Below are positions 8,954 through 36,418 of a stretch of DNA of 36,793 nucleotides, one piece after another; the stretch's first letter is position 1, and every line of letters starts with the position of its first letter. The notes under the pieces are model-generated. The model saw only the letters and a program-made list of their open reading frames with translations. It was not told the DNA's origin and ran no database searches. The position numbers and the translations under genes were made by a program. This DNA is from a virus (lineage: Duplodnaviria; Caudoviricetes), in IMG/VR virus record IMGVR_UViG_3300008255_000257, positions 1-36,793 of that record, one strand, 5' to 3'.

Positions 8954-8986
8954 AAAATAATTCTTGGTTAAAATTTATAATTAATA

Positions 8987-9071: not shown

Positions 9072-9077
9072 GAAAGA

Positions 9078-10058
9078 CTACGCTGGAGTAACACCAATAC
9101 CTGATGTAGCGGCAGTTGGAACTGGCGCAACAACCTGCATTTGATCCGCAGTAACTGCAAAGTTGGTCGTATTGAAGGTGGCAGGATTGGCGAAGTTAAG
9201 CGTGCCTTTTACAAGACTACTTACACTCGCGACAGCGTTTGTAAGCGCTATACCGCCTGCCGAATCAACTGAAGCCATAAAGATACAGTTTTTAAACAGA
9301 TTGGTGAAAAGCACATCGGACGTCGCAACAACTTTTATAAAGAGCGCCGTAGCCGAACTTGAGGATATCAAGAAAATACAATCTTCCAAGATGTTTGATT
9401 TAAACTCTTGGCTGGCTGTAACTTGATCAATCGTGAAAACAGTTCGCGCCGCGCTAGTCAAAAGGGTTTCTGTTCCAAATAGACACTTTATAAATGTCGC
9501 AGAATCAGCGCCACAAAGAACTTCCGTGGCGGTTGTCAGGTCAAGATTACCCACTACCCCGAAAGTAAAGGTGCAATTTTTATACAGATTGCCTTCGCCT
9601 CCCTCCTCCAAAACATGAAGGGCAGTTGCTTCCGTGCCAGCTTGAATAAATTTAATATTTCTAAAGCTGTTTCGGACACCGGTAACTTTTATCACATACG
9701 CAGCCGTGTCAGCAGTGGCATTTTGGACTTTGGTTCCTTGCTGGACTAGGCGGTCTCCGCCGTCTAGTCCGATAACGGTAATCCTGCTTTTATCCCAAGC
9801 GATGCCAGATGCAATTGTGTGGGTAGTGTTTGCGCTCATGAAAATTGTATCGCCTCGAGAGGAAACACAAGCATCTTCTGCGGCTGTGAGTGTAGTAAAG
9901 ACATTCTTTACTCCATATCTCTTCACTAGAAGCGGATAATTAGTGTCGGAGTCTTCCATCACATAGAATACTTCTCCGTAAGTTAGAACACTGGCGCGCA
10001 GAACATCATCTACGAGTTCTCTGCGTACGCCGGAAATAATATCTTCTTTAAAACTCAT
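9078..10058 (-). CDS. Right-handed beta-helix (pectin-lyase-like) virion protein
   Basis: TTLTAAEDACVSSRGDTIFM entry motif then repeated xxFxNCxF coils; likely start is ATG 10058 (MSFKEDI). Confidence 0.7.
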   Translation of the reverse strand: MSFKEDIISGVRRELVDDVLRASVLTYGEVFYVMEDSDTNYPLLVKRYGVKNVFTTLTAAEDACVSSRGDTIFMSANTTHTIASGIAWDKSRITVIGLDGGDRLVQQGTKVQNATADTAAYVIKVTGVRNSFRNIKFIQAGTEATALHVLEEGGEGNLYKNCTFTFGVVGNLDLTTATEVLCGADSATFIKCLFGTETLLTSAARTVFTIDQVTASQEFKSNILEDCIFLISSSSATALFIKVVATSDVLFTNLFKNCIFMASVDSAGGIALTNAVASVSSLVKGTLNFANPATFNTTNFAVTADQMQVVAPVPTAATSGIGVTPA

Positions 10059-13440: not shown

Positions 13441-13561
13441 TGAAATTTCAGAAATGGCGAGAAAACTGAAATTTCAGACGGATAATATAGGGTAATTATA
13501 TACCCAGACTTATTATCAACGCAAATGTGGATAACAAGTCTGGGTATACAATGCGGGTTAT
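13441..13561. promoter_or_regulatory. Regulatory intergenic region: twin palindromes TGAAATTTCA and a long hairpin containing a DnaA box
   Basis: TGAAATTTCA at 13441-13450 and 13467-13476; inverted repeat 13495-13552; TGTGGATAA at 13526-13534. Confidence 0.65.
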
Positions 13562-18693: not shown

Positions 18694-21231
18694 TTAATAA
18701 GGATCAAAGTTATTATTAGCAATATCACTAGCACCCGAGCTACCGGAAGGCGCGTTGTTGCGCTCGCGGAGTTGGAAAGGGATATGTTTTGGTTCGTGAA
18801 GGATGAGTCGGTGGAGGTTCTCCGGCATGTGGTCATTCTTGTCTTTCGGCCGACCGGATTTTTGTTTATCGTCTGCGCTAGTGCCTTTATATTCGGCCCA
18901 GACATATTCTTCTAGTTGTTTAATTGTAACAGGGCAGGAGTCAAAAATAAAGATTTCTGGTTCTTTTACGAATTTTCCGGCTTTAATTTCATAATCAAAG
19001 GCATCTTCTAGGCGTTTTATACCGGCCATGAGGTCTTTACTACCTTTAATCCAACGCTCCCGAGAGATATCTACTATTTGGCTTCCTACACTTGGCTCTT
19101 TTGTATGCTGGTTATCATTAAAAGCTGAAGGATCAATGATTCTGTCTTCAATGCGAAAGTGCATTTTTGTTTCCAGTTCTATCATTCTTGAGTTGAGCAT
19201 TTTTACTAAGCCTTCAGATAGAAGTTCGGCGGTTACTATTTTAGTACCTTTACTATTGACAGAAAGATACAAAACATGGTCTTGAACTCTGGGGTGCGGA
19301 TCGAGCGCTTTGTATGTTGTCCAGTCTTTTTCGTTGATAGGAAAAGGTTTTATGACATGAATTTTTCTATTAAATCTTTTATGTACTCTACCGAGTAAAT
19401 GGCCAAATTTTCCAAATATGCGCGCTTCTTTTTCATCTTCCGGCATAGAATCAGACATTCTTTGAATTGCTTTATGATCTAGAATTCCTCTTACTCCGTG
19501 GATTTTACAGTTACCAGTAATAAGAGGATATTTTTCTGTTTTATCCCTCACAATAATTGTTTCATTATCAACAGAAACACAAGACACTATCCCATTATAA
19601 AAAACCTTCTTTATACCTCTATCCACATAGGAATATCTATGTTTAAGAGCTGAAACACAATACATATCAGCACAAAAATATTTTCTACCCATTATAAATC
19701 TTTCCCCTTGCTTCCACTTTCTTAGAGAGGCTCTATACCCTAATCTTATCAGTAATTCTTGAACATCATCAGCTAGTTGTTTAGAGGAAGTTAAATATCT
19801 TTTTTTAGAATCTCCATCGGTAATTAAAAGTGTCTCCCAAAGTAATTGAAGATATTCTTTTGGGTACTCAAAAACATACCTTGGTATATGTTTTTGCGCC
19901 GAATTTCCTAAGGAAAAAAGATTTTGGTGTAATTCTTTACTAGATAACCAATATTCATATTTTCTTTCTCGCCAAGCCCATTTAGTTTTATCCAATAACT
20001 CCTTTAATTTCTTTCTTTTTTCTATGTGTTTTTGAGTAATATAAATACCATAATGCTTTTGGGTGCTTCCCTTAGTGCCAGTAGCACAACCCTCAGAAAT
20101 ATACCAACCTAAGAATTCACACCAATCTTTTCCACTAATTTTGTCAGGAAAAGGGGAATCAAATCGAGTTGCCACATAACCATTTTCGGAAAAATTTAGC
20201 ATTCGGACTCCACGACGCAAAGTGTCAGCTCGCCTTATTTCTAAAGGCATATTTTTTATTGTTCTTTTTTCTCCTAAATCACTATTAAAAGTAACCATTC
20301 TATGATCGGGAGTGAAAAGAAGACCGTCTCCAGTAGAAATAAGTTCCCCAGAGAAATTTTTTTTAACTAATTCATTTACTTTTTGATATTCAATTAGTCT
20401 ATTTTTTAAATTATAGGTGGCTACTATATCCCCAATCTGAACCTTGTCTAAATCTCTCCAGCCTTGATATGTCAATATTTCTGCGTTATCGGCAAGACAA
20501 GCATCTTCTACTTCCGCTTCCACATATTCCGCTTCATCCGGGTGTTCGTCCATCCAGTCTTTTACCCAGCCGGCTTGAAATAGAGGCGTATAAGTCCAGA
20601 AACATATCATTCCCATACGACCTCGAGCAAGAGAGGCGAGAAATCTATCTTTAGGAAGAGGCTCATCAATCCAAAGAAATCCCAGATCAACGGATTCAAA
20701 GCTTTTCAGATCCTGTTCGTTACTCATTACGTCAATAGTCCAGCCGTTGTTGAAGATAAACTTTGAAGCATAATACTTTCCTTCTTTGGAAGTTTCATAT
20801 AGTTTCTCAGGGAAATTTTTATATGTGTTTCTTGGAAGCCATTTTATCAGCTCTGGTATTATTTTTTCTTTAATAGTTGTTGGATCAGAAATAACACGGC
20901 CACGCTTTATATATGGAAATTGTTGAAAAAGAGGATGTTTGAACCATTTATTCTGTGGACCAAAGATGATATTTGCCACAATATTAGATCCTACGGCCGT
21001 TTTACCTACCCCGTTAGCTCCAATAAACATGTTTACAAATTTAGAATCAGAGCCGACGAGTTTAATAAACTTCTCCACCTTGCCGTTTGGTGTATAATAC
21101 TGCGCGGCTTCCATAGCATCACGTTGTTCCAACTCCTCAGCCATTTCAGCTATTTCAGTCAGCTCTTCTTCCGGCAATTCTTCAAGCCGTTTTCGTATTG
21201 TATCTATTGAACTTAATATTTCTTCTTGCAT
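18694..21231 (-). CDS. terL: Terminase large subunit, intein-containing
   Basis: Walker A GANGVGKT, Walker B FLWIDE, coupling motif TYTP, and nuclease residues ALDPH...NDHMPENL. Confidence 0.9.
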   Translation of the reverse strand: MQEEILSSIDTIRKRLEELPEEELTEIAEMAEELEQRDAMEAAQYYTPNGKVEKFIKLVGSDSKFVNMFIGANGVGKTAVGSNIVANIIFGPQNKWFKHPLFQQFPYIKRGRVISDPTTIKEKIIPELIKWLPRNTYKNFPEKLYETSKEGKYYASKFIFNNGWTIDVMSNEQDLKSFESVDLGFLWIDEPLPKDRFLASLARGRMGMICFWTYTPLFQAGWVKDWMDEHPDEAEYVEAEVEDACLADNAEILTYQGWRDLDKVQIGDIVATYNLKNRLIEYQKVNELVKKNFSGELISTGDGLLFTPDHRMVTFNSDLGEKRTIKNMPLEIRRADTLRRGVRMLNFSENGYVATRFDSPFPDKISGKDWCEFLGWYISEGCATGTKGSTQKHYGIYITQKHIEKRKKLKELLDKTKWAWRERKYEYWLSSKELHQNLFSLGNSAQKHIPRYVFEYPKEYLQLLWETLLITDGDSKKRYLTSSKQLADDVQELLIRLGYRASLRKWKQGERFIMGRKYFCADMYCVSALKHRYSYVDRGIKKVFYNGIVSCVSVDNETIIVRDKTEKYPLITGNCKIHGVRGILDHKAIQRMSDSMPEDEKEARIFGKFGHLLGRVHKRFNRKIHVIKPFPINEKDWTTYKALDPHPRVQDHVLYLSVNSKGTKIVTAELLSEGLVKMLNSRMIELETKMHFRIEDRIIDPSAFNDNQHTKEPSVGSQIVDISRERWIKGSKDLMAGIKRLEDAFDYEIKAGKFVKEPEIFIFDSCPVTIKQLEEYVWAEYKGTSADDKQKSGRPKDKNDHMPENLHRLILHEPKHIPFQLRERNNAPSGSSGASDIANNNFDPY
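19510..20499 (-). mobile_element. 330-aa intein with LAGLIDADG homing endonuclease in TerL
   Basis: N-terminal CLADNAEILTYQGW, block B TPDHRM, LAGLIDADG motifs FLGWYISEG and LLITDGD, C-terminal ...LITGN followed by +1 Cys. Confidence 0.9.
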
Positions 21232-21240
21232 AATTTTCTA

Positions 21241-21296
21241 ATACTACCCTGCTTAGCGAATCCTATTTTTTCGACGAAATAGAAGCAGAGTAGTAT
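21241..21296 (-). promoter_or_regulatory. Structured leader hairpin before the terL start
   Basis: 14-bp outer stem 21241-21254/21283-21296 (one G-U) plus inner CUAUUU/AAAUAG stem, ending 9 nt before AUG. Confidence 0.6.
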
Positions 21297-21303
21297 CAAA
21301 AAA

Positions 21304-21582
21304 CTACTCTTTACCTTTTGAACCTATATCATCCATTTGAATTGGGGAAATAATAGGTTTGTCTTCTATATCAATTTCTCCATGCTTTTCTTCATATTGC
21401 TTAAGAGCTTCATTCATTCCAGCTACTATTTGTTTGAAGTGAATTGGATTAAAAGCAAATCCGGTTATTTTTTCGCCAGAGCTAAAAAGGGCGGTTAAAA
21501 ATTCTTTTCCAAATCCAAAAAGGGAGCTATCACAAAATTGCTTAGGGATTAAATTTATTACTTCGGGGTTTATTTTAGGCAT
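21304..21582 (-). CDS. Hypothetical protein
   Basis: 92-aa ORF between terS and terL. Confidence 0.65.
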   Translation of the reverse strand: MPKINPEVINLIPKQFCDSSLFGFGKEFLTALFSSGEKITGFAFNPIHFKQIVAGMNEALKQYEEKHGEIDIEDKPIISPIQMDDIGSKGKE

Positions 21583-22127
21583 TATTTCTTCTTGGTTATT
21601 TTTGATAATATAGTGTCAATGAGTTGATTTTTTGAGAATCCCTTGAATTTTAGATTGTACTCTTCTGGAGCAAATTTATTTTTGATTTTGTAGGCTTTTT
21701 CAAGAGCTTTATCCCTCGCCTGATTATCTGGACTCCAAAAATATACATGGCGCGCAAGATCACCATGCACTATTTTACGAAGCCGGCATCCTAATTCTAA
21801 AAACAGATTTTCTATATCTTCATCAGAGATAATTTCTGCACCTTTCTTTTTTTGCTGGACTTCTGGCGGAAAAGTCATATGATCGAGCCTATGAGAATTT
21901 AAAAGACTATCATGGATTCTGATTAGTTTGTCATCAGAAAGTACAATTTTAACTAAAGTATCCCAGCTTTCTGTACCTTTTAGTTGATGAGGATTCTTTG
22001 AATATGCTTCTGAATAACCAGCAGCTAGAATGGACTGTCCTAGTGTTTTTCCTTTTCCAAGATTTTCAACGACTATTTTATGTCTCTCTAAAGGCTTTTT
22101 AGTTTTGGGTTTTGTGGTTTTTTTCAT
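21582..22127 (-). CDS. terS: Terminase small subunit
   Basis: HTH-like LGQSILAAGYSEAYSKNP motif and ARDKALEKAYKIK; located upstream of terL. Confidence 0.7.
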   Translation of the reverse strand: MKKTTKPKTKKPLERHKIVVENLGKGKTLGQSILAAGYSEAYSKNPHQLKGTESWDTLVKIVLSDDKLIRIHDSLLNSHRLDHMTFPPEVQQKKKGAEIISDEDIENLFLELGCRLRKIVHGDLARHVYFWSPDNQARDKALEKAYKIKNKFAPEEYNLKFKGFSKNQLIDTILSKITKKK

Positions 22128-22161
22128 GGCTTAGTATCTTGGTTTTCTTTTTCTTGGCATG

Positions 22162-22470
22162 TTATTGAGGTTTATTTATAAACTCGGTGTCAATATCATT
22201 ATGTGCAATTTCTATTAGCTCGTCAAGGGTGCTGGCTTTGTCTGAGTAAAATTTTCTTTTATAGAAGAGGTTGTATTCAAAGATGCGCGGTTTAGTGAGA
22301 GGATCTTCGGTTCCTGGAGTAGGTGGTTTTTGAATGTAAACAATGGTTACGTCTTTATAGATCTCCAGCCGGATTGCTTGGATGTCTGGGCGGTAGGATA
22401 TACCGGAGAGGTATTCGTTGGGGAGGTTTTCTTTTTTTCTAAACAATAGTTGTTTTATTTTTTGTAACAT
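22162..22470 (-). CDS. Hypothetical protein
   Basis: ORF track 22162..22506; likely start ATG 22470. Confidence 0.6.
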   Translation of the reverse strand: MLQKIKQLLFRKKENLPNEYLSGISYRPDIQAIRLEIYKDVTIVYIQKPPTPGTEDPLTKPRIFEYNLFYKRKFYSDKASTLDELIEIAHNDIDTEFINKPQ

Positions 22471-22474
22471 GTGG

Positions 22475-22561
22475 TTAATTTTTTGAGCCATTATTAAATC
22501 CAACAATGTAAGTGATCAAAAGGGTAGCAAGAACGAATATTATTGTGAATATTGTTTCCAT
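22475..22561 (-). CDS. 28-aa TM peptide (METIFTIIFVLATLLITYIVGFNNGSKN), leaderless
   Basis: ATG 6 nt after an extended -10 TGGTATAAT (22576-22568). Confidence 0.5.
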   Translation of the reverse strand: METIFTIIFVLATLLITYIVGFNNGSKN

Positions 22562-22582
22562 GTTTTTATTATACCATTAAAT

Positions 22583-22819
22583 TTATAATTCCTTAAACGC
22601 ATCAGGACTTGAATCTTTTCCTCGATATTTACCAGTGTACTCCATTTCTCCATTTTCACTCCCTTCTTTGTGTTTTATGTACCCCTCTCGAATATAAAAA
22701 TTCACTTCTGCCCTACTTAAAACTAGAGGGTACCCGCCGAACATTATCCAGTTATTAGGTTGTACTTTATAATCCATAAATATTAATACCGGCAGCATGA
22801 TCAACTTCATGCTGTACAA
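22583..22819 (-). CDS. Hypothetical protein (start uncertain)
   Basis: ORF following def. Confidence 0.45.
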   Translation of the reverse strand: MYSMKLIMLPVLIFMDYKVQPNNWIMFGGYPLVLSRAEVNFYIREGYIKHKEGSENGEMEYTGKYRGKDSSPDAFKEL

Positions 22820-23228
22820 TAAACGCGTCGATCTCTTTGAAAGTCCTCCGGCGCGGGATCAGAAAGAGGTTGAAAAGGGGGGTTTGGTAGGTTACGGTGA
22901 TCTTGGCGAATCTATCTACTTCTTTCTCGGACCGGTACATGAAGCTCATACAGCCCTCAGAAAAGGTACAAGGTTGCTCTTTTTTGACTATCCTGGCGTT
23001 TATTACGCACCAGTGACCGAATGTTCGTATTTTCTTCTTATTCACCACAAAGAAGACTTTGGGGCTTTCTGAGACCTGTGTATGGGATATAGCGAAGGCG
23101 TCTTTCCAGTTGCCTTCAAATTCCTTAGCATCCAGGAAGGCTTTTAACTCTAGTGCCTCCTCTTTAATCTCAGACCATCTTTGTACCTTTTCTGATATTT
23201 TATTACTTAGGGGTTTTAGTATTTTCAT
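22767..23228 (-). CDS. def: Peptide deformylase (short viral type)
   Basis: EGCMS (motif 2), QHEVDH (motif 3), degenerate motif 1 AFAISHTQV, INARI. Confidence 0.85.
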   Translation of the reverse strand: MKILKPLSNKISEKVQRWSEIKEEALELKAFLDAKEFEGNWKDAFAISHTQVSESPKVFFVVNKKKIRTFGHWCVINARIVKKEQPCTFSEGCMSFMYRSEKEVDRFAKITVTYQTPLFNLFLIPRRRTFKEIDAFIVQHEVDHAAGINIYGL

Positions 23229-23354
23229 GAGTCATTTTACATTAATACATTTAAGTTGTTGTATTCCTAGGTGCATAAATCTACTTCGTGGATACATAAC
23301 TGATAAAAAAACCAATCTAAAGATATATCTTTTTTACAAATAGGACATATATAT

Positions 23355-23663
23355 TTAGCTCTGCCTATTCTTGTGGCATTTTCTAAATATTGATAACATA
23401 CGACCTTTTGGTGGTAGGTATTTAGCCATTTCAAAGCCAATTTTTATTTGCTCATTTTCATTATCTTCTTTTTCGGCAAAAAGTCCGCCTGTTTTACTAC
23501 TTGTTATATTTCCTTTAATGTTCCCAACTAACTCGGTTAGTGTTTTTTCTAAATCTTCTTTTGAAGGGATTTTTTCTGCCTTATTCCCTGAACACCACTT
23601 CCAGTCCAATAGCACGTAAATTGGATGTATTTCTTCTACGAATTGTTCAATTTCTTTTTTCAT
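23355..23663 (-). CDS. Hypothetical protein
   Basis: 102-aa ORF in the early operon. Confidence 0.6.
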   Translation of the reverse strand: MKKEIEQFVEEIHPIYVLLDWKWCSGNKAEKIPSKEDLEKTLTELVGNIKGNITSSKTGGLFAEKEDNENEQIKIGFEMAKYLPPKGRMLSIFRKCHKNRQS

Positions 23664-23667
23664 ATAT

Positions 23668-23847
23668 TTATGGTCTTAAATTTCTAATAAAATTATAAAC
23701 TCCTGCACTTAACTTTTCAACTTTTGGCTTGGTGTATGGTGGGATAGAGGGCATATAATTTTCGTATCTTTCTTCTTCAAGTGTAGCTTTCTTTTTTGCG
23801 TTTAAGTAATTGTAGTGGTTTAGGGATTTTTGTAATAGGGGGTTCAT
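23668..23847 (-). CDS. Hypothetical protein (59 aa)
   Basis: Hand translation MNPLLQKSLNHYNYLNAKKK...; ATG overlaps the upstream TGA and the stop is 4 nt before the next ATG. Confidence 0.55.
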   Translation of the reverse strand: MNPLLQKSLNHYNYLNAKKKATLEEERYENYMPSIPPYTKPKVEKLSAGVYNFIRNLRP

Positions 23848-24305
23848 TTTTGAAATATACTTAATTGTAAGGGCTTTATAAGATTAATATTCTGATCATA
23901 CTCATAAGCAAATTTAGAATCAAAGTCCGAAAACCTATGTTTTAGTTGATCAATATGTATTCGTTCTTCTGAATGTTCTTGAATTTTATTTCTAAATATT
24001 TTTACTTGTTTAGGAATGGATATTTCTCCTCTTAGAAATTCTCCTCCCCGGGTTGTTATGAGCCATTCTCCATTCCTTTTTTTATCTTTATCATAATGTG
24101 CTATAAGGCCATGAAAGCGGAGTTTTTGTAAATTAGAGGCTTCGGAATAGTTTAAATTTAGATCTTTATAGTGAAATTTATTCTTTTTTGTTTTTTTCAC
24201 ATAAATTATAGCTTTTATTAAGACAGATACTAGTCCAGGAGTTAAGCTATGCCAAAAAGCTTTCATTCCTGCTCCGCAATATTTACATGTTTCTGTATTT
24301 TCCAT
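23844..24305 (-). CDS. Putative winged-helix DNA-binding protein with N-terminal CxxC
   Basis: CKYCG; LNLNYSEASNLQKLRFHGLI...WLITTRGGEFL resembles a wHTH plus wing. Confidence 0.5.
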   Translation of the reverse strand: MENTETCKYCGAGMKAFWHSLTPGLVSVLIKAIIYVKKTKKNKFHYKDLNLNYSEASNLQKLRFHGLIAHYDKDKKRNGEWLITTRGGEFLRGEISIPKQVKIFRNKIQEHSEERIHIDQLKHRFSDFDSKFAYEYDQNINLIKPLQLSIFQK

Positions 24306-24543
24306 TTTTTATATAAATACTTATTAATACTATTAGCTCTGTGGATATGTGGAAAAGTGTGTTTAAGCTTTATTTTATTAATTTTTAATACACTATTTAT
24401 TCTAATTTTGTGTTAATAACTTGTGGATTAAATTTGATAACTTAAGTAATAACTTTTATGTGTATAATCTGTGGATTATTTTAGCCTTATTTTTCAAAAA
24501 GTTATCCACATTCACACAGTCGTTTTCCACAGATTTATCCACT
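24306..24543. other. oriC-like replication origin: DnaA-box cluster plus DnaA-trio unwinding element
   Basis: Consensus TTWTNCACA boxes at 24348-56, 24459-67, 24502-10 and 24523-31; 1-mismatch boxes at 24340-48, 24411-19, 24422-30, 24470-78 and 24535-43; trio array at 24322-24336; very AT-rich intergenic region. Confidence 0.85.
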
Positions 24544-24759
24544 TATTACAGCCTCAACTGTATAACCTAGCGCTTCCGGGTGAAATTTCTTATTTTTTAT
24601 AAATATATAAGACGTTATTTGTACTGGTTCAAAGAAATCTCCTGTTTTATGTAGCCGATCGACCGCGGCCGCTAATTTGTCTTTTAGGTCATAATCCTCA
24701 CTATTGTGGGGGTGTTCTAATGCAAGTGCTGGAACAAATATGTTTAGTTTCTTACTCAT
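24535..24759 (-). CDS. Hypothetical protein
   Basis: 74-aa ORF after recA. Confidence 0.6.
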   Translation of the reverse strand: MSKKLNIFVPALALEHPHNSEDYDLKDKLAAAVDRLHKTGDFFEPVQITSYIFIKNKKFHPEALGYTVEAVISG

Positions 24760-24764
24760 ACGTT

Positions 24765-25823
24765 TTATTCTTCTTCTTTTTCCTCACTGATCTCCACTTC
24801 TTTATTTTCTTTATTTGGAAGCATGAGGTCTTTTTTTATTAAATCAACAATTTTTTCAGCGGTTTTAGGGTTTTCTTTCAGAAATATTCTTGCTTTATCA
24901 TAGCCAACTCCTAGCCTTATTTCTACTTTATCCTCAATAAAGAGATAGGAATGGCCAGATTTGGTGATGATTTTATATTTTTCTCCAAGGGCGAGAATCT
25001 CTCCTTGCTTTGAGATACCTTCACCATACATAATATCAAATTCTGTTTGGCGGAAAGGAGGAGCAACTTTATTTTTAGTTACTTTTACCCTTGTTCTATT
25101 TCCAACAGTTTCCTCTCCCTTTTTTATTTGTGCAAGTCTGCGCATATCCAGACGAACGGAACTATAGAATTTTAAGGCCTTGCCTCCAGTTGTAAACTCT
25201 GTGGGACCATACATCTGACCAATCATTTGGCGGATTTGGTTTAAGAAAATTACTACAGTTTTTGAATTACTGATTAAAGGTATAAGCTTACGCAGGCCAT
25301 GGGACATTAGTTTTGCGTGTCGGCCGACTTGAGGATCTCCCATATCTCCTTCTATTTCTGCTTTAGGGACCAAAGAAGCTACGGAATCAATTACCACTAC
25401 CGCGAACTTTCCAGTACGCACAAAGCTCTCTACTATCTCTAAGGCCTGCTCTCCGTTCTCTGGTTGGCTGATTAAGAGGTCTTTAGTGCTTACCCCTATC
25501 TTAGAGGCATATTCGGGGTCTAACGCGTGTTCTGTGTCAATATAGGCACAAAGACCACCTGATTTTTGAGCCTCTGCTACTGTATGCAGAGCTAGGGTTG
25601 TTTTACCAGACATTTCTGGGCCATATATTTCAACTACGCGTCCACGCGGAAATCCTCCTATTCCAAGCGCCATATCTAATCCAAATGAACCGGAGGGAAT
25701 AGAATCAATATCCATCGCTGTTTGGTTTAATTTCATTACACTATCTTCTCCAAACTTCTTTTTTATTTCCTTTATTGCATCATCTACACTTGCACCTATT
25801 TCTTTTTTTGATTTTTCTTTCAT
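24765..25823 (-). CDS. recA: Recombinase RecA
   Basis: [73 protein letters not shown]. Start is 25823 or 25859. Confidence 0.97.
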
Positions 25824-25842
25824 GTTCTTGCTTTTTAAATTT

Positions 25843-26298
25843 TTAATATTGAATTTCATTTTCTCTACCCTCAACTAGTTTTTTATTTAATTTCATAAAC
25901 TCAGTGATGGCATAATATGGGCTAACTTTTTCTCTTGACCTTTCTTCTAGGGCTTGGAATTCTTTTTCTCCAAGCCACATCAGCATATAGTCTTTATATA
26001 TTCCCTTTTTGTTTATTTCCCAGATTGCATGACATTCGGTACAGAGGGTTATACAGTTTTCCGGATCATATCTAGTAGCATATATTGTCCGACCAAAATA
26101 ATGAGAACAACCAAGGAATCTTGTTGAACCGCAAGCTACACATTGACTGTCCCTTTTTCTTATTTCTAAGGAAAATCTATGATCAGCTTCTTGAACCTGC
26201 CAGACATCTTTTATTTCTCCGGTAACTTCACGGAAATTTCTCATGCGTTTAAAAGCTTTTAGGGTAGAATTTTTAGTTTTAAATGGTGTTTTTTTCAT
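25843..26298 (-). CDS. NinG/Rap-like HNH recombination endonuclease
   Basis: [17 protein letters not shown]...CSHYFGR...[16 protein letters not shown]; likely start 26298. Confidence 0.8.
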
Positions 26299-26299
26299 T

Positions 26300-26530
26300 T
26301 TAAAATATCTTTCCTCCAAGCCAAAGAATGAAATAAATCCAACCCATAACAAGGGTATAGCCAAAAACAAATTCCACTACTGTTTCCTTGTTAATGGAAA
26401 AAAATAAAATAATAGGGATTAAAATAAGGGCAGCGAGAGGAAATAGTCCCCAGAGTATAAGTATTCCAAACACAAAGAATGCTTCTAAAAATCCCCTATT
26501 TATTTTTAATCCAGATTGTTTCATTTGCAA
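26300..26530 (-). CDS. Small multi-TM membrane protein
   Basis: Two to three hydrophobic segments. Confidence 0.55.
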   Translation of the reverse strand: MQMKQSGLKINRGFLEAFFVFGILILWGLFPLAALILIPIILFFSINKETVVEFVFGYTLVMGWIYFILWLGGKIF

Positions 26531-26703
26531 ATATATCTTGAGCTTATAATAGGTAAACCACCAACCTCATATTCACCAAAACACCATTGTATTGTCATTA
26601 TTTTCTTTTCACGCTCATTTAGAAATAAAAATGGTAATAGAATTGCAATACCTAATAAGACTAAAAACAATATATCAAGGAAAACAAAAGTTTTATTTTT
26701 CAT
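26521..26703 (-). CDS. Small membrane protein
   Basis: TM segment FVFLDILFLVLLGIAILLPFLFL; ATGA-coupled to the upstream gene. Confidence 0.55.
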   Translation of the reverse strand: MKNKTFVFLDILFLVLLGIAILLPFLFLNEREKKIMTIQWCFGEYEVGGLPIISSRYICK

Positions 26704-26855
26704 TTCTTAAACCATTGGCTTATAATATGCCGGACTAGGGCACTTTCATTTCCTCCAAAACCTTTTCTAGATTCAGATTTTATATTTTTTATGTTTTGCT
26801 TTGTAAGCCAAAATCCTTTACGAAAATATTTTAATACTTGTTTTATTTTTGCCAT
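26700..26855 (-). CDS. Ribbon-helix-helix (Arc/CopG-like) regulator, leaderless
   Basis: MAKIKQVLKYF-RKGFWL(beta)-TKQNIKNIKSESRK(helix A)-GFGG-NESALVRHIISQWF(helix B); first gene of the early operon. Confidence 0.6.
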   Translation of the reverse strand: MAKIKQVLKYFRKGFWLTKQNIKNIKSESRKGFGGNESALVRHIISQWFKK

Positions 26856-26861
26856 AGTGAT

Positions 26862-26911
26862 AGTATATAAAAAATAGCATAATGGTGTCAAGTAGTGTCA
26901 TATGTGGATAA
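26862..26911 (-). promoter_or_regulatory. Strong early promoter with direct repeats and DnaA box
   Basis: TTGACA(26891-86)-N18-TATACT(26867-62)-N6-ATG; GTGTCA repeats at 26885 and 26895; TGTGGATAA at 26903-26911. Confidence 0.7.
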
Positions 26912-26918
26912 CTTTTTT

Positions 26919-27281
26919 ATGAAAATAACAATACCAATTAAGCCCCTTTCAATCAACGATGCTCATTACGGCCGGCATGTTAAAACACGAACTTTTCGGC
27001 AATATGAAAATGATATTTTTTATTTACTTCCATATAATAGGACAGAGTTGAAGGAAGGAGAGTATTTTGTAAAGTATGTTTTTTATATTAAAAATTATAA
27101 AATATCTGATACAGGGAATTTTGAAAAGTTAATTACGGACCTTCTGGTCAAGCGCGGATATTTAAAAGACGATCGATATATTAAGGCTATGTATTTAGAA
27201 AAGGTGGCCGTCAAAGATATAGAAAATGAAAAGATTATTGCTAATATTGTCCCTTATAAAGACCGGAGAAAAATTTTATGA
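26919..27281 (+). CDS. rusA: RusA-family Holliday junction resolvase
   Basis: IPIKPLSIN, catalytic DTGNFEKLITDLL and DDRYI motifs. Confidence 0.85.
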   Translation: MKITIPIKPLSINDAHYGRHVKTRTFRQYENDIFYLLPYNRTELKEGEYFVKYVFYIKNYKISDTGNFEKLITDLLVKRGYLKDDRYIKAMYLEKVAVKDIENEKIIANIVPYKDRRKIL

Positions 27282-27421
27282 AAAAATCTAAAATAGAAAA
27301 AAGAAAAAAAGATATAGTAGATTATTGTTTTAGAATAATTCATCTTTGGCTTAAAAATCCGGAGCAGAATTTATCTTGGGTTTTGAGAAATTTAGAAGAA
27401 AGAAGCAAAAAAACACCATAA
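27278..27421 (+). CDS. Hypothetical protein (47 aa)
   Basis: ATGA overlap with the rusA stop; MKKSKIEKRKKDIVDYCFRIIHLWLKNPEQNLSWVLRNLEERSKKTP. Confidence 0.5.
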   Translation: MKKSKIEKRKKDIVDYCFRIIHLWLKNPEQNLSWVLRNLEERSKKTP

Positions 27422-27459
27422 TTAAGTGAAAGCAATCCAAGCTTTCTATGGTGTTTTTT
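27408..27459. terminator. Probable bidirectional terminator between convergent rusA and lysis operons
   Basis: AAAAAACACCATA...TATGGTGTTTTTT inverted repeat with an inner GAAAGC/GCTTTC stem. Confidence 0.65.
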
Positions 27460-27498
27460 CTACGTGCTTCCCAGAAAACCCAAGAAGTCGTATTTATA

Positions 27499-27678
27499 TT
27501 ATACTATAGGTTTTACGGTTACGTATCTTAAATAGATGTCTAAGATAGATTTTATTCCAGCGCCAATTCCGGTCAAACCTAGAGCTGGGTTTTCCGCGTA
27601 AACTACTAATAATACTCCGGCAACTCCTTGAGCTACCGCCAACCAAATTGTTCTACTGTTATACCATTTTTTTTCCAT
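27499..27678 (-). CDS. Holin-like protein (59 aa)
   Basis: Not in the ORF track. MEKKWYNSRTIWLAVAQGVAGVLLVVYAENPALGLTGIGAGIKSILDIYLRYVTVKPIV; two hydrophobic segments; end of the lysis cassette. Confidence 0.7.
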   Translation of the reverse strand: MEKKWYNSRTIWLAVAQGVAGVLLVVYAENPALGLTGIGAGIKSILDIYLRYVTVKPIV

Positions 27679-27696
27679 AAATTAAAAGATATTAAC

Positions 27697-28209
27697 CTAA
27701 TAATCTCTCGACCACTTAAATCCTCCAACAGACTTCCTTCGTCCGTGGACAACATTCAAAATAGATTGTTTACTTCTTCCGACATATCTGGCACCCTCCG
27801 CGCAAGAACTAAAGGACCGTAAGTACACTCCATCCATTGTAAACTGGTAAACAATATTTCCCAAATCCATACTTCTATGACATTTTACACATAAAGAAAC
27901 AAAATCGCTTCGTTTTCTAAAATATTTACCACTTATATTTGCCCACTCAAATCTCACCTTCTCTTCTGTTTTGCATTTTTCACAAGAAGACGCACTTCCA
28001 AATTTTTTTCTTATCCATAAATGTTTCGCAAAGTACCCAGCTTTCTCACCTAACCAATAAGGAGACTTTTTCTCTGATATTTTCTTTAAAATATCTCTCT
28101 GTGTTTTACTTTTGTTATGAAAGACAACCGCACAATTTTGTGTACAAAAAGATTTTCTACGTCTAGTTTGAATAAACTTTTTTTTACATTGTTTACATTT
28201 TTGGGTCAT
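27697..28209 (-). CDS. HNH-variant homing-endonuclease-like protein with NUMOD1-like C-terminus
   Basis: CKQC..FCTQNC; WLGEKAGYFAKHLWI...FEWAN...LCVKCHRSMD; VYQFTMDGVYLRSFSSCAEGAR...GGFKW. Confidence 0.75.
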   Translation of the reverse strand: MTQKCKQCKKKFIQTRRRKSFCTQNCAVVFHNKSKTQRDILKKISEKKSPYWLGEKAGYFAKHLWIRKKFGSASSCEKCKTEEKVRFEWANISGKYFRKRSDFVSLCVKCHRSMDLGNIVYQFTMDGVYLRSFSSCAEGARYVGRSKQSILNVVHGRRKSVGGFKWSRDY

Positions 28210-29833: not shown

Positions 29834-32800
29834 CTAATCTACTTCATTTTGTGCAAGTTTTTTAAGTTGTTTATACACATCATCAGTAATTATTTTCTTT
29901 TTTCTGAGCTCTTTTATGTAGGCGTTTTTTTCTTCCGGTGTTTTCATATCCTTTGTTTGCTCGAAGATATATTCTGCGCGTTCACCATTTTCTACGCCCA
30001 TGTTTCTGATTTCAATATCTTCTTCGGTGATGCCAAGTTCTTCATCTTCTTTTAGTTTTTTTATTCTTCTATATAAAGGCGGATCATTTTCTTTGTATTC
30101 TTTCATTATTGCGTTGGCTTCGTCTTTTGGAAGCGCTTTCAGCCTCTCAAATTCTTTTTCAGCTTCTGATACTTCTTCTCCGATAAATTGTCTTACCACG
30201 GATGGCTTCAATGTATTTCCGAGCTTTCCTACTCCGCGAATTTTGTCGTCTTGTGTCCGGTCTCCGGTTGCTAGTGAGATTCCTATTTGCTTCAAAGCCA
30301 CGGAAATATCGCCGACAAGAGACATCAGAGGCGGTTCCGATGTGTATAGAGTAGGATCAAGCGCCCCGATGATAGAGAGCGAATCACGCGCCGCTTTCCA
30401 AGCCACTTCTTCCATGAAGTTTCTGTCCTTTCTGCGCTTTTTTCTTTCCATAAATTCGTAGGTGGCGAAAACGATGGTGGCCGTTAGTAAAACAGCTCTT
30501 AATGTCTCCCTTCCCTCCCGAGAATTAAGTGGCACTTTGCGGGTTGTTAGTTTTCCGATGTCTGAGAGTGTTGTTGAGATGATAGGCAATGCCCAGCTCT
30601 TAAACTGCGTGTATCCTTTTCCTATCGCGGTCTGGCCATAAATTGCTTTTGTCCCCATGCCACCGGTAGGCAACTGCCGCGCCATACCTTTTTTAATAAG
30701 CGCGAGCCGGTCAAGGTCTATGGCTCCCGAGGTCCATTCTGCCTTACTCATTGAGCCAAGGAGAAAAATAGAGTTAGCGTTGCGCGAGGCGTTTGAGAAA
30801 AGTCCGTATAATCCGACTTCCACTTTATCCCCAAAGCGCGCGGCCGCATCAAGGAAGGGCTGTCTAGCCAGTTCTCCCACCAGCGCTTCGTATTTCTTCG
30901 CCACGGCGCGTCCTTTGGGAGTCGCAAAGCGTTTTACTCCCAGCGCATACATTTTCTCTCCCAACCCCTTATAAACAAGCACTTGCGCGCCGGCTTGCGA
31001 GGTAAGTCCGACAGGGATATTAAATCCGAGAAAGAGTAATCGGGTAAAAGCTGTGCCGGTTCTCACCACCCAATCTAATTTACCTCCGGGCTTCAAGAAA
31101 GCGCGATCGGTTACACGTCCTTTTTGCGTGTTCATAAATTCCTTATAGAAACTCTTTAGTTGAGCGTCAAATTCCAGTCCTCGCGCGGTTGTCGCTAGAG
31201 AGTTTACAGAGTCAATGATTGCTTGATATTTTGGAAAGATAACATCCATGGCGCGCTTGCGGTTGAGCACCTCTTTATAAATCATATATGCCCTTGCGAC
31301 ATTTTTTGAAGGCACGAGCTGTCCTGTGCGCTTCATAGAAAATTGAAACCATTTTTCAAGAGGCAAGACTTCGCCTGTGCGCTGGTTCAAGATACCCGCT
31401 ACCGCTTCATCTTGCTTATACCTATCGAGAAATTCCCTGAAAGCCGCGCGCGCGCCTCTACCTGATCTTCTCCAGAATCCCGGCTTCTCTCCGGAAACCA
31501 CCCCGGCGACATAAGTCCCTTCCTCTTTCCATGCTTCTAAGAATGAGCGACGAATATGTGTGATATAATTTTTTACATATCGTGTCAAGGTGCCCTTTCG
31601 CAGGAGGTCGTCTCGCTCCTTTGCTAAGTCTTTCCAAATCCATTGCGCCGCCTTCAACTCAGCTGGGGTCATATCCTTTGCATATAATAGCTTGTCTTCC
31701 GGTCCAGCGGATAGCCAACGATAAGCAAGATCGTCTGTCGGAACGAGCCGTTCTACAAGCCCTCGTTTGCGAGATTTTCGTGCCGCCTTAAAGAGTTCAT
31801 TGACCGTCTCCCGCGCTTCAAGCGTTGCCATACTGGACGCTAAATCCGCTTTGTATATGTCGTGGATCATTACTTCAAAGAGCGGATTTTGACGTACAAG
31901 AGCGTTGCCCCCCATGTAGTTCCACTTTTCGTCGTGTTGGATGCTTGTCAATTCAGAAAGTTTAACCGGTGGTTTTCCTTCCAAGGCCCGCAATTTATTA
32001 ATGTCTTCAAGCGAGCGAGCAACTGCTTCTCTTCGTGTAAAGATACCGGCGAGGCTAGTGTTTTTGAGAGTCTGGAGCGTTCTCGGACCAAGAAAGACGT
32101 CTCCCTTTTCAAATTGTCGCAGGAATTCATCAAACTCTCTCATCTGATCAATAGTCATTTTTTCAAAGGAGTTCGGCATTTTGAGGAGTTTGCGGGCGTT
32201 TTCCCACTTTTTTAATTCCAAGTCGTTGATAGTGGCTTGCAGGGCAATACGCGCTTGGCGGTGGAGTTCCCTTTTTTCCAGGTAACCAGCCATGTATCCC
32301 TTAAAGGTTTCAGTGTTGAGAGCGTAGATTTCATCGTCTGTTAATTCTTCCAGCGCTTTTCGGGCGTTGGTTCTTTGTTCAAGAGCAAGCGTTTCCAAGA
32401 GTTCGGCTTTTTTCATCAGGGCGAGTTCTGCGCGCTTGGCAGTTGCCATTTTTTCCAACGCCTTCCTTTCTCTGGCTGTAGTGAGATATTTTTCTATTTC
32501 TTCTCTTATGACATCCGGGTCGTCAAACTTCCCAGACAATTCTGGTCTGTCTTCAAAGGCGCTTTCAACCGCTCTGGTTACTTTTAAATTTCTTGCTTTT
32601 ATTGCTTCTCTTTGGCGTTCAGTGTATTTAAATTTACCCATACTATCCACAGCGTCAGGGTTCTTTAATTCTTCAAATTGCCCTTCTTTTTTAGATTGAA
32701 ATTTGATTAGTTTCTTACCGGGCATAGTGTCCTCTACTTCTCTGATAATTTCCAGTTGGACCTTGATGTCATCCAACTCTTTAGAAGCTTTTCCAATATC

Positions 32801-35119
32801 ACGAGGACCCAGCGCCTTTATTTTGCTTCCGAGTTCTTCAAGCTGTTTTGTCGTTATATCTTTAACTTCGTCTAACTCTTTCTGCACTCTCGGCCCAAAA
32901 TCCTCCCCAGCCCGAGCTCGAGCAGCCGCACTCTCCACCGCTCCAGCCGTGCCTTTTTTAGGAAACTTTGGTGGTGTGGTGGCGATGAATTCTTCGGCGG
33001 ATTTTGGTTTTACTGCTTCCACCCCATCCCACTCTGCTCTTAGTTGGGAGCGTGTTTTGATTACATCTGGATTAAATACTGCATAGTGTGTTGAAGGTCT
33101 ATTATATAAGCCAACAGCGTCATCTATGTTTTTTATTTTAAGCCCAGTTTTGTTTAGTTTTCTAGCTTTTTCAACTTGTTGACTTAACCAACTATCAATA
33201 TCTCCGTCTTGTCCTAATTCTTGTGGTGTTTTTCCTTTAGCATCAACTTCCAAGAAATCCCCTTTAATTGATACATCTTTAACTTTTGCATTTACTCTGC
33301 GGTCGTATGTTGCATCATACCCACCCAAATCGTCTATCTTTTGTGTCAACTCATCCACTTTCAACCAGTCGGAGTTTTTGCCACTTTTTTGTGCAATCTT
33401 TTCAAGTGCGGCGTGTTGTTTCATTAGTTTATTTATTGGACCAGTTTCGGCGGCATATATAGAATATGCTTTAGCAGTAGCAGGGTCATCAGTAAACCAA
33501 AACGCCCCCTTTGCACTTTGAGCATCTGTAATACTACCCTTAAAAGAATCACTAAACTTTTCAAAATCTGCGGCAGTTCCGTGATAAGCATTTATTTCCC
33601 CCTTCACCCACTCATCAAAAGATTGGCCAGAAGCTTTGGCTTTGGAGATGGAGGTAGAAAGCTCTGTTTTAGGCACAATCGCTGTTTCTGGGACAGTTTT
33701 TGGCGTTTCCCGCACACTAAAAGGCTCGCTCCCCCTAGTTTCCCCGTTAGCGGTGGCTTTTGATATTTCTTTTGGTTTAAAAAGCGGATTTTGTTTACCA
33801 TTGATAGTTTCTATTTCTTCTATCCTAACATTAATTTGATTTTTAGTACCAACTCTTTCTATTTTTATCATATCACCCATTTTCTGTTTCTCAAAAATAT
33901 ACTTATCCTCACTAAAGAATCTTTGACTTGCTTCTGAATTTTGTCTTCCTTTTATGCCATCTTCAAAAATATTATCTACAATAACAGTGAAAGGTAAAGT
34001 TTCTCCGTCTTTCGGCCTTACTTTGTATAAGTTAGGAGGGTCTATTACTTTATATTCCGCATTGGTTAAATTAGTTTTTACAACATCTCCCACTTTAGGC
34101 ATAATCGATGTCTCCGGCGAAGGTATTTCCACCGGCTTGATTGTGTTTGTTTTAGGATCATAGAAGCCGGAGGGTTGGGGAGCAGGCAGGGCAGTTTCTG
34201 ATTGTCTGGCTATGAAGGTCGCCGCTTCACCTCTTATGGCGGTTTCTACTCCCTCAGCTGTCGTGGCTTTTGCTACGTTATGAGCTGCGGCTTGAGCTAA
34301 TTCTTCCGGTAGGCCATACCTTATCATCGTAACCCTCGCTAGGTCGTCTGTGGTAGCTTCTATGAGTTCTTTTAGGGCTATTGAGGTCAGCTTACCTTTT
34401 CCACCTGGAAACCAGGCATCAGCCACGAATCCGGCTATTGCTAGCGTGATGCCGAGGTTGTTTTTTTCCCATGGAGTTGCTATTGGACTTTTTCTTACGA
34501 AGCCGTCTATGTCTTCCTTAATGTTCTGCCAAGATTTTGGTTTGTGTTTAAATAAAATATCCTCTATGCTTTTATATGTTTCAATATCTTTATAGACTAA
34601 AGTTTCTTGTTTAAAAGATTTTTCTGCATCTAATACTCGTTCTGTTTTTGGCTTTCCTATTCTTGAAGTATCTGTCAGGGCTTGTCTGATTGCTTCTTTA
34701 CTCGTATCTACTCCGAGAAGTTGCGCCGCTTGTTTATAGGGAGAATATTTAGAAGTGTAGGCGGCTTCTAGTATTGTTTTTCCGACAGAGGAAAATCCTC
34801 CTAAAATTAATCTAGGAAAGTCCACAGTCACGGCTTTAGCTATTTTAGCCGGTTGTTCTATAAGTTCTGTCACAGCTTGTTGTCCGGTAGTTTGTTTACT
34901 TCTTCTTTGGGCTTGGCTTTCAAAAAAAGCGCTTATTCCAGTTGCCACAGCTTCTGGTGTTTTTGTCAAGGTTGTAGAAACAAGACCTCCAGGTACGAAG
35001 GGTTCCGGTGGAGCGCTCATATCAAAAACGGGGATGGGCGGAGTTTCAATAAAGAATTTCTCCTTTACCTTGCTTCCCAGTTTCTTTATTTCATCCCTTA
35101 TGTCAAAAAGTTGTGGCAT
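29834..35119 (-). CDS. Large polyvalent internal virion/ejection protein with ADP-ribosyltransferase-like domain
   Basis: 1761 aa, largely helical; AYHGTAADFEKF...GAFWFTDDPATAKAY...YAVFNPDVIK resembles ART-PolyVal. Confidence 0.7.
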   Translation of the reverse strand: MPQLFDIRDEIKKLGSKVKEKFFIETPPIPVFDMSAPPEPFVPGGLVSTTLTKTPEAVATGISAFFESQAQRRSKQTTGQQAVTELIEQPAKIAKAVTVDFPRLILGGFSSVGKTILEAAYTSKYSPYKQAAQLLGVDTSKEAIRQALTDTSRIGKPKTERVLDAEKSFKQETLVYKDIETYKSIEDILFKHKPKSWQNIKEDIDGFVRKSPIATPWEKNNLGITLAIAGFVADAWFPGGKGKLTSIALKELIEATTDDLARVTMIRYGLPEELAQAAAHNVAKATTAEGVETAIRGEAATFIARQSETALPAPQPSGFYDPKTNTIKPVEIPSPETSIMPKVGDVVKTNLTNAEYKVIDPPNLYKVRPKDGETLPFTVIVDNIFEDGIKGRQNSEASQRFFSEDKYIFEKQKMGDMIKIERVGTKNQINVRIEEIETINGKQNPLFKPKEISKATANGETRGSEPFSVRETPKTVPETAIVPKTELSTSISKAKASGQSFDEWVKGEINAYHGTAADFEKFSDSFKGSITDAQSAKGAFWFTDDPATAKAYSIYAAETGPINKLMKQHAALEKIAQKSGKNSDWLKVDELTQKIDDLGGYDATYDRRVNAKVKDVSIKGDFLEVDAKGKTPQELGQDGDIDSWLSQQVEKARKLNKTGLKIKNIDDAVGLYNRPSTHYAVFNPDVIKTRSQLRAEWDGVEAVKPKSAEEFIATTPPKFPKKGTAGAVESAAARARAGEDFGPRVQKELDEVKDITTKQLEELGSKIKALGPRDIGKASKELDDIKVQLEIIREVEDTMPGKKLIKFQSKKEGQFEELKNPDAVDSMGKFKYTERQREAIKARNLKVTRAVESAFEDRPELSGKFDDPDVIREEIEKYLTTARERKALEKMATAKRAELALMKKAELLETLALEQRTNARKALEELTDDEIYALNTETFKGYMAGYLEKRELHRQARIALQATINDLELKKWENARKLLKMPNSFEKMTIDQMREFDEFLRQFEKGDVFLGPRTLQTLKNTSLAGIFTRREAVARSLEDINKLRALEGKPPVKLSELTSIQHDEKWNYMGGNALVRQNPLFEVMIHDIYKADLASSMATLEARETVNELFKAARKSRKRGLVERLVPTDDLAYRWLSAGPEDKLLYAKDMTPAELKAAQWIWKDLAKERDDLLRKGTLTRYVKNYITHIRRSFLEAWKEEGTYVAGVVSGEKPGFWRRSGRGARAAFREFLDRYKQDEAVAGILNQRTGEVLPLEKWFQFSMKRTGQLVPSKNVARAYMIYKEVLNRKRAMDVIFPKYQAIIDSVNSLATTARGLEFDAQLKSFYKEFMNTQKGRVTDRAFLKPGGKLDWVVRTGTAFTRLLFLGFNIPVGLTSQAGAQVLVYKGLGEKMYALGVKRFATPKGRAVAKKYEALVGELARQPFLDAAARFGDKVEVGLYGLFSNASRNANSIFLLGSMSKAEWTSGAIDLDRLALIKKGMARQLPTGGMGTKAIYGQTAIGKGYTQFKSWALPIISTTLSDIGKLTTRKVPLNSREGRETLRAVLLTATIVFATYEFMERKKRRKDRNFMEEVAWKAARDSLSIIGALDPTLYTSEPPLMSLVGDISVALKQIGISLATGDRTQDDKIRGVGKLGNTLKPSVVRQFIGEEVSEAEKEFERLKALPKDEANAIMKEYKENDPPLYRRIKKLKEDEELGITEEDIEIRNMGVENGERAEYIFEQTKDMKTPEEKNAYIKELRKKKIITDDVYKQLKKLAQNEVD

Positions 35120-35445: not shown

Positions 35446-36264
35446 TTATAAATAACTCGGGCAAAACTTTTGATAAAGATTTTTTTCCACAAATACAATA
35501 GAATTGGCGTATGATAATGTAGTTTCCAACCACGCATGCCTAAGTTGATTTTTCAAAGACACAATATCTGCCCCTCGAAGCAACATATTGGCGGTCATTG
35601 ATGCTCGGAGAAGGTGGGGAAATACTCGCTTAATAATTCCTGCTCTCTTGGAAATCACTTTGACCCATTTTCTCACATCCCCTGTAGCTAGTCTGTTTTT
35701 CTTTTGCAGGGTGGTAAATAAATAATCATCTTGCCCTCTTGGAAATTCGTTTAGATATTTGATGAGTATTTCAGTGCATTCTGGAGCGATTTGAGAGATA
35801 CCGTCTTTTAGCCCTTTGCCATTTATTACTCTTACAGCGTTTTGGGTGATGAGCACGTCTTTAACCTTCAACCGGCAGATTTCTAAATTCCTAATGCCGG
35901 AGTAAGCCAACAAAGACAGAAGTGCTTTTTGCCGAATATCTCGACAGTTGAAAATCATTGTCGTAATTTCCGCTTCAGTCAGAGTATTTTTAATTATCGG
36001 GCGAGGTCTTTTCTGTCTGCCAAATCTCACTGGTCTATCGATAAACTTCATATACTTTTCCACTCCAAGCATTGTGTTAAGTTTATGTGAATAAGAATAT
36101 CCCGAAGTGTACATTGCGCAGATATATTTTTCTGCTTCATCCACTGTGGGATAATCTCCTAAAACTTTCGACATTCTTCGATACGAGCCGACATAACTTT
36201 CTACCGTAACCATTTGTAATCCCTCACGAGCAATTAAAAACTGCTCAAATGCTTCTTTTTGCAT
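35446..36264 (-). CDS. Tyrosine recombinase (XerC/D-like size, no arm-binding domain)
   Basis: Catalytic set SGIR, GKGLK, HLLR, LRH and Y in ETTLSY; 272 aa. Confidence 0.92.
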   Translation of the reverse strand: MQKEAFEQFLIAREGLQMVTVESYVGSYRRMSKVLGDYPTVDEAEKYICAMYTSGYSYSHKLNTMLGVEKYMKFIDRPVRFGRQKRPRPIIKNTLTEAEITTMIFNCRDIRQKALLSLLAYSGIRNLEICRLKVKDVLITQNAVRVINGKGLKDGISQIAPECTEILIKYLNEFPRGQDDYLFTTLQKKNRLATGDVRKWVKVISKRAGIIKRVFPHLLRASMTANMLLRGADIVSLKNQLRHAWLETTLSYANSIVFVEKNLYQKFCPSYL

Positions 36265-36265: not shown

Positions 36266-36368
36266 TAGTTTCTACGAAAAACTACTATTAAAAGTGGAAG
36301 AGCGACATATTCGTAGTATGTCGCCCAAGTTACCCTCCCCGACGGGAGACCACTTGGACATTATACCA
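36266..36368 (-). promoter_or_regulatory. Recombinase promoter and highly structured leader with complementary hairpin loops
   Basis: TGGTATAAT at 36368-36360; stems 36292-97/36350-55, 36302-09/36317-24 and 36266-71/36279-84; loops CUACGAA and UUCGUAG. Confidence 0.7.
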
Positions 36369-36418
36369 ATTCTATTGTATTTGTAAAAGAACAGCCAGTT
36401 TATAGACTTGTTTAGGTC

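Follow-up and report, generated by a model that had tools for sequence, protein, structure and literature searches.

A tailed-phage genome of 36,793 bases carries, at 24305-24543, an array of DnaA boxes joined to an unwinding element with the anatomy of a bacterial chromosome origin, and it is proposed, with a probability of roughly 60%, that host DnaA fires phage replication at this site in place of an initiator gene. The basis of this reading, which is drawn from sequence, is the anatomy of the element, its similarity to oriC of the Patescibacteria type, the failure to detect an initiator and the occurrence of either an initiator or an array among relatives that share the terminase. Throughout the text, the window denotes the whole stretch of DNA that was analysed, that is, all 36,793 nucleotides of the viral record.

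The phage genome

The viral record is linear, has a completeness rating of 90%, and both of its ends lie inside one tail-fibre gene with repeats spaced about 300 bases apart. The same proteins are encoded on a 37,407-base contig and the loose end before base 2 corresponds to another fibre repeat; the missing 0.6 kb or so probably consists of two further tail-fibre repeats. Family matches (PHROGs, Pfam and NCBIfam) identify a major capsid protein, an SU10-type portal, a large terminase, tail fibres and a polyvalent protein, together with RecA, NinG-like and RusA-like nucleases, a methyltransferase, a peptide deformylase and a short Xer-like recombinase, and no tRNA gene and no terminal repeat were found in the window. 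The phage sequence is present in four aquifer or groundwater sequencing runs from four studies, one of which is possibly the source sample. Members of its RecA clade often lie on contigs of 37-47 kb, which suggests a large phage clade with its own RecA.

Several other features of this genome were recorded. The large terminase (18694-21231) has 845 amino acids with an intein-like LAGLIDADG insertion, most homologues having about 515, and the polyvalent protein (29834-35119; 1761 amino acids) has an ADP-ribosyltransferase domain and no further family. An inverted repeat with 19 perfect bases has one arm (35482-35507) just 3' of the catalytic tyrosine codon of the Xer-like gene and the other (36366-36391) about 100 bases upstream of its start, beside the tail-fibre gene; it could be an invertible switch altering the tail of the recombinase, and no inversion joint was seen in contigs. 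Lone perfect DnaA boxes (TTATCCACA) occur in three intergenic gaps away from the array (13526, 17315 and 26903), where DnaA control of phage promoters is possible. A 26-base inverted repeat with a 6-base centre (13495-13552), located in the gap before the scaffold gene, contains a perfect DnaA box in one arm.

Anatomy of the box array and unwinding element

Nine DnaA boxes are found within 24340-24543 (Table 1), eight of them with at most one mismatch to TTATCCACA. When scored against TTWTNCACA, four are exact (24348(-), 24459(-), 24502(+) and 24523(+)) and five have a single mismatch (24340(-), 24411(-), 24422(-), 24470(-) and 24535(+)), with two extra weak, AT-rich matches at 24358 and 24490. 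When the 238 bases were subjected to 2000 dinucleotide shuffles, sites within one mismatch of TTATCCACA numbered 0.08 on average and never more than 2, against the eight observed, and the best other 210-bp segment of the genome holds 2 such sites. Beyond the array, a box at 24348-24356 is followed by a second at 24340-24348, a spacer at 24337-24339, DnaA-trios at 24322-24336 and an AT tract at 24305-24321. This is the order of the bacterial basal unwinding system (BUS), which, according to the available text of PMC8287927, consists of at least three trios and a box of up to two mismatches no more than 16 bases from them, usually with a tandem pair of boxes and 3'-GAT-5' as the first trio. In the phage, the upstream box ends 11 bases and the downstream box 3 bases before the first trio, and all five trios have a central A, the first of them being 3'-GAT-5'. 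Seven distal boxes stand 63-187 bases away, distal boxes being required besides the proximal pair in B. subtilis in vivo (PMC6669920, available text). The first-pass annotation had described about nine boxes, six in one orientation and three in the other, ending in tandem boxes, a spacer, five trios and an AT tract; both descriptions were borne out, with places and orientations all as stated, a spacer of 3 bases and agreement with the published rules.

Table 1. Coordinates of the features at and around the predicted origin (positions in the window)
Feature	Position	Strand	Remarks
Viral winged-helix protein, 153 aa, N-terminal CxxC	23844..24305	-	Predicted structure, pLDDT 85.8; unnamed viral family
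AT-rich tract, predicted melting site	24305..24321	-	Extends into the start codon of the next gene, like host oriC into dnaN
Five DnaA-trios, 3'-GAT TAT CAT AAT TAT-5'	24322..24336	+	Consensus 3'-NAT-5', first 3'-GAT-5' (PMC8287927, available text)
Spacer of 3 bases, GAG	24337..24339	-	BUS register
Tandem proximal boxes	24340..24356	-	Correspond to boxes 6 and 7 of B. subtilis; role after PMC6669920 and PMC8287927 (available text)
Second box pair, 11 bases apart (24422 one mismatch, 24411 weak)	24411..24430	-	Box scan
Box pair, 11 bases apart (24470 one mismatch, 24459 exact)	24459..24478	-	Equal spacing in L008
10-base motif	24483..24492	-	Common to the box arrays of L008, L295 and L292
Distal box, perfect TTATCCACA	24502..24510	+	Box scan
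Distal box, exact TTWTNCACA	24523..24531	+	Box scan
Distal box, one mismatch	24535..24543	+	Box scan; overlaps the stop codon of the 74-aa ORF; oriented away from the site of unwinding, a feature of host oriC too
74-aa ORF without known relatives	24535..24759	-	Occupies the position of the DnaA domain-IV ORF in L295
RecA	24765..25823	-	Family match
Short Xer-like tyrosine recombinase	35446..36264	-	Family match; dimer resolution or integration as putative roles

By nearest-neighbour energy, only two duplexes of the genome are weaker than the 30-mer at 24306. Contigs from two runs cross the site without a differing letter (X1, 18854-28060, possibly from the source sample, and X2, 22947-24661), and for this reason the site is not a misassembly. 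GC skew around 24.4 kb, which had been named as a check, gave a cumulative curve with no turn at the site, in a genome with nearly all genes on one strand, and the fourfold-site skew between the genome halves reached p 0.08 for GC, with the wrong sign, and p 0.05 for TA, so that base skew lends firing at this site no support. A chromosomal oriC lies in a cell chromosome, usually beside dnaA or dnaN, whereas this element lies in a genome with capsid, portal and terminase genes, and a six-frame search of the window returned no dnaA match; it is thus no oriC in the strict sense, though it would work like one.

Match to Patescibacteria-type host origins

A scan of the BUS core against 185,579 species genomes produced 33 matches. 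Ten of these are Patescibacteria-type gaps before dnaN (8 labelled and 2 unlabelled; L023, L025, L030, L032, L033, L036, L042, L044, L046 and L050), with dnaA seen upstream in nine, the dnaA and dnaN names at matched loci being read from translations; the remainder comprises two dnaA-dnaN gaps of Erysipelothrix and 21 matches in Bacteroidota. The 45-base core is identical at 42/45 positions to the dnaA-dnaN gap of L036 and at 33-39/45 to the nine other Patescibacteria-type origins, values that are in part a product of construction since the search pattern was derived from phage sequences, which does not apply to the bases beyond the pattern nor to the reverse distal boxes. Such reverse-facing distal boxes lie 157-190 bases upstream, as in three of the hosts (L023, L032 and L044). 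The view of the element as an oriC mimic, put forward in the first-pass annotation, is thus strengthened by its match to a particular type of dnaA-dnaN origin. The origin core also indicates the host group, with which the named homologues of RecA (Paceibacterota, 64%) and of the terminase (Roizmanbacteria) are consistent. Compared with B. subtilis DnaA, whose key residues were taken from the available text of PMC10721633 and PMC8287927, the DnaA of host L036 has the same arginine finger, the same K222 and E228 and the same helix for reading the box, has conservative changes at the trio-pocket residues N187, I190, I193 and R202, and has F in the place of T225, the last of which counts against firing by DnaA.

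Most of the 21 Bacteroidota genomes (L019-L049; Chitinophagales and others) have this BUS core some 65 bases upstream of a conserved gene that encodes about 335 amino acids and is not dnaN; the site is likely to be their oriC.

Very high identity to one host origin core could also mean that the element is a neutral relic, a functionless piece of host oriC acquired by recombination, and one of the RecA relatives described below (L295) indeed has a dnaA 3' end joined to such an array. This is highly improbable. The sequence upstream of the core is far closer to the origin of another phage, L008, than to that of any host (homology over 200 bases, score 112 versus a shuffle maximum of 71), which points to long maintenance in phages; in addition, a phage with neither origin nor initiator could not persist, yet this one is seen in four groundwater runs of four studies, including the one that is possibly the source. 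Under the preferred reading, a host dnaA-dnaN gap is the probable source of the module, which would be exchanged among Patescibacteria phages.

Search for an initiator in the window

PHROGs and Pfam searches of 46 ORFs, and NCBIfam searches of 28, revealed no initiator, helicase, loader, primase, polymerase or SSB, and none of the three collections detected a Rep family in the window. Likewise, none of the 782 six-frame segments of the window matched any of 21 replication or recombination proteins from relatives or a profile built on 13 initiators. RecA, picked up by a DnaB profile, was the sole match of the six-frame profile searches, and family and six-frame searches taken together gave no O-like or DnaD-like initiator and no O, P, DnaC or DnaB homologue. 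It had been claimed from the first inspection that no polymerase, helicase, primase, SSB or Rep/O-type initiator is recognisable, and these searches support that claim. About 20 short ORFs belong to no family, which leaves room for a new kind of initiator and counts against firing by DnaA, as does the 90% completeness rating of the record.

The ORF at 23844-24305 had been singled out beforehand as a possible cryptic initiator whose existence would overturn the proposal. It encodes a small winged-helix protein whose model has only weak, regulator-like matches of the MarR/PadR-type fold and no Foldseek match at E 0.001. A single-sequence search for this gene in viral contigs returned none and an alignment search returned 27 loci; BUS is present in 0/27 of these other phage loci, and among those checked two have an O-like initiator and three a primase, so that the family is not tied to BUS and some members stand beside an initiator or primase of the phage itself. 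The gene is probably a neighbour of the origin and not a part of it. The 74-aa ORF on the other side has no DnaA similarity and no usable Atlas match.

Initiator or array among relatives

Relatives of the terminase were represented by 23 non-redundant loci with at least 7 kb upstream, the window's own record (L108) being excluded from all counts. An O-like or DnaD-like initiator is present in 16 of the 23, 13 of them upstream (from a scan of 31 of the 181 upstream ORFs, chosen by eye) and 3 elsewhere in the record, two of these three being weak matches; two others have a primase and one a helicase. The two closest relatives (78% and 73% over the N-terminus) both have initiators. Neither an initiator nor a canonical BUS occurs in the DNA seen of the remaining four (4/23), which counts against firing by DnaA. 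Canonical BUS was found in 0/154 terminase loci, many of them short or duplicates, with a detector (a box with at most one mismatch and four TAN repeats) that can miss divergent origins in relatives. In L215 (terminase 48%) a four-box array comes directly after the exonuclease, in the slot where L078 has an initiator; it comprises (L215:6023-6190) reverse boxes behind the stop codon of the exonuclease, forward boxes and an AT tract, with CAA repeats and not canonical trios. A wider search for this CAA-repeat variant gave 8 matches, of which 2 belong to the L215 phage type and 6, set aside as chance, fall within a single family of coding genes. L055 has an initiator directly before the winged-helix gene, where the window phage has its BUS. 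In L060 an O-like initiator gene (2821-3357) contains three internal DnaA boxes, with a fourth, at one mismatch, near its end.

Three of the 35 RecA loci were examined in full. L295 combines RecA with a DnaA domain-IV ORF (E 3.5e-14) and a twin BUS, with no initiator among the 16 ORFs scanned; the 3' end of the domain-IV ORF overlaps a box array that is followed by two BUS modules on opposite strands (8972-9700), and the whole looks like a captured dnaA end with its oriC. In L292 (complete record G020) there is an array of boxes that lacks trios, and a scan of 15 ORFs gave no initiator, while L293 has RecA and an initiator and no array. The first-pass annotation had proposed looking for the same element in related phages, and this was rewarded with the homologous origin of L008, the twin BUS of L295 and the non-canonical array of L215. 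The distribution, seen among fragments and not as a phylogenetic test, suggests that the origin may be a captured, exchangeable module.

An array of this kind might also be a sink that soaks up DnaA or a switch that gates the packaging operon downstream of it, with the phage relying for its replication on RecA-driven strand invasion or, as a prophage, being copied passively. RecA, NinG-like, RusA-like and Xer-like genes are at hand for such a life, the element stands just before terminase or late genes in L008, L282 and G006, lone perfect boxes occur in three other gaps of the genome, and the array of G020 has no trios. For these roles, however, boxes alone would suffice, and five in-register trios with an AT tract are kept in the window phage, L008, L017 and L295; moreover, promoter-like sequences in the region are not in excess (6 found versus 5.7 expected). 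Recombination-driven replication still requires a first round or a second genome copy, which also counts against this possibility, and it is regarded as rather doubtful.

BUS in other phages

A strict BUS pattern was matched in 16 viral contigs, 11 of 10-46 kb and 5 of microvirus size. The relaxed pattern gave 23 further matches, 10 of them intergenic; the other 13 were set aside as lying inside ORFs with 0-2 boxes, although 3 of these, in GC-rich DNA, resemble genuine cores. A BLAST search with the origin in 50,697 annotated phages returned only short, weak matches (best E 0.02). Among BUS-bearing genomes, no replication gene was found among the 43 ORFs scanned, out of 57, of the complete genome G006, nor among the 20 scanned, out of 41, of G005 (85% complete). 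Against a strict exclusion between BUS and replication genes, the BUS of G001 lies next to a primase-polymerase gene, that of G003 is directly followed by a weak HTH_36 ORF and that of G027 adjoins a weak DnaD-like ORF, while G032 has an HTH_36 gene. G008 has its own polymerase, primase and helicase, and its BUS match lacks upstream boxes. Since some BUS phages keep replication genes, BUS alone is no proof of initiator-free replication.

The small contigs (L005, L006, L007, L015 and L016; 4.6-4.8 kb) are microvirus-like by their ORFs, as judged by eye; in them a Rep-like gene is directly followed by 4-6 DnaA boxes with a tandem pair, trios and an AT tract (for example L006:3240-3420). A literature search found no paper combining Microviridae with a DnaA box.

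BUS phages with a replication protein of their own indicate that BUS can also serve beside a phage protein, and this keeps alive a scheme of shared firing, in which DnaA opens the BUS and a small phage protein (winged-helix, 74-aa or another unnamed ORF) licenses it or loads the helicase, like Rep in P1 or F. Such a scheme would fit the Rep-like or primase genes beside BUS in other phages, and a silent or integrated phage would need off/on control of an origin of this kind. It would also fit the 10-base motif common to four phage arrays, which was initially spotted by eye in three of the four phages and is absent from the origin gaps of the 9 host loci checked. The P1 and F origins are opened in vitro by DnaA alone, yet greatly helped by Rep (PMC5043065, available text). 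On the other hand, the winged-helix family has a generic regulator-type fold and is not tied to BUS (0/27 loci); L008 has a homologous origin, yet its 10 kb shares no protein with the window phage; and no array of direct repeats of about 20 bases (iterons) occurs at the site among the 20 largest repeat families. Shared firing is judged unlikely.

Proposed mechanism

Under the preferred reading, that of firing by host DnaA, and by analogy with B. subtilis, host DnaA-ATP would bind the seven distal boxes and the tandem pair and would then polymerise along the five trios on the + strand, upon which the AT tract at 24305-24321 would melt. Host helicase, primase and polymerase would be loaded and theta replication of the circularised genome would follow. 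More tentatively, RecA, NinG and RusA might convert the circles to concatemers as substrate of the terminase, while resolution of dimers or integration of the genome might fall to the Xer-like recombinase. A mini-chromosome life style and titration of DnaA by the phage may be inferred from this scheme. In its widest form, to which about even odds are given, the proposal is that a class of tailed phages common in Patescibacteria viruses traded the initiator gene for a captured host oriC, forming natural DnaA-only mini-chromosomes, and that a gene-free origin module of 240 bases moves between unrelated phages and competes with the host chromosome for DnaA.

If true, a phage fired solely by the host chromosomal initiator would represent a new replication strategy in which phage copying is tied to the host DnaA-ATP cycle, and it would explain many metagenomic phages seemingly without replication genes. 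The phage origin also provides a short, naturally occurring substrate for work on the DnaA of Patescibacteria, a group in which origins are known from position alone.

Comparison with known systems

Textbook tailed phages encode an initiator themselves or begin replication at transcripts, nicks or terminal proteins. The lambda-type O/P and DnaD-like modules occupy the same early-region slot among recombination genes and are used by the 16/23 terminase relatives noted above, whereas the window phage has no homologue of O, P, DnaC or DnaB. Also comparable are oriC minichromosomes and datA-type DnaA titration sites, a replicon and a site that rely only on host DnaA; minichromosomes, however, are laboratory constructs, and datA is not known to have trios or to start replication. 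The closest cases on record are the chromosomal BUS and the DnaA-assisted iteron replicons. The latter (phage-plasmid P1, F, RK2 and pSC101; PMC5043065, available text) resemble the phage site as extrachromosomal origins with DnaA boxes that host DnaA can open, but they have a Rep gene and iterons, neither of which was found in the phage, where trios are present instead.

With the bacterial oriC BUS (B. subtilis incC boxes 6/7 and trios; PMC6669920, PMC8287927 and PMC10721633, available text) the phage site shares tandem co-oriented boxes, a short spacer, five trios starting from 3'-GAT-5', and distal boxes of either orientation no more than a few hundred bases away; it differs in lying in a tailed-phage genome without dnaA or dnaN, and its BUS activity is predicted. 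A literature search, with subscription papers outside its scope, found no report of BUS on a phage. With the Patescibacteria (Paceibacteria-type) dnaA-dnaN gap, an origin itself predicted from position, the site shares the core (33-42/45), reverse boxes just after the upstream stop codon and a start codon 45-70 bases past the tandem boxes, and differs in having more forward boxes and, as flanks, the 74-aa ORF and the winged-helix gene. In conclusion, the element is a known origin module, the chromosomal BUS, in a new kind of replicon.
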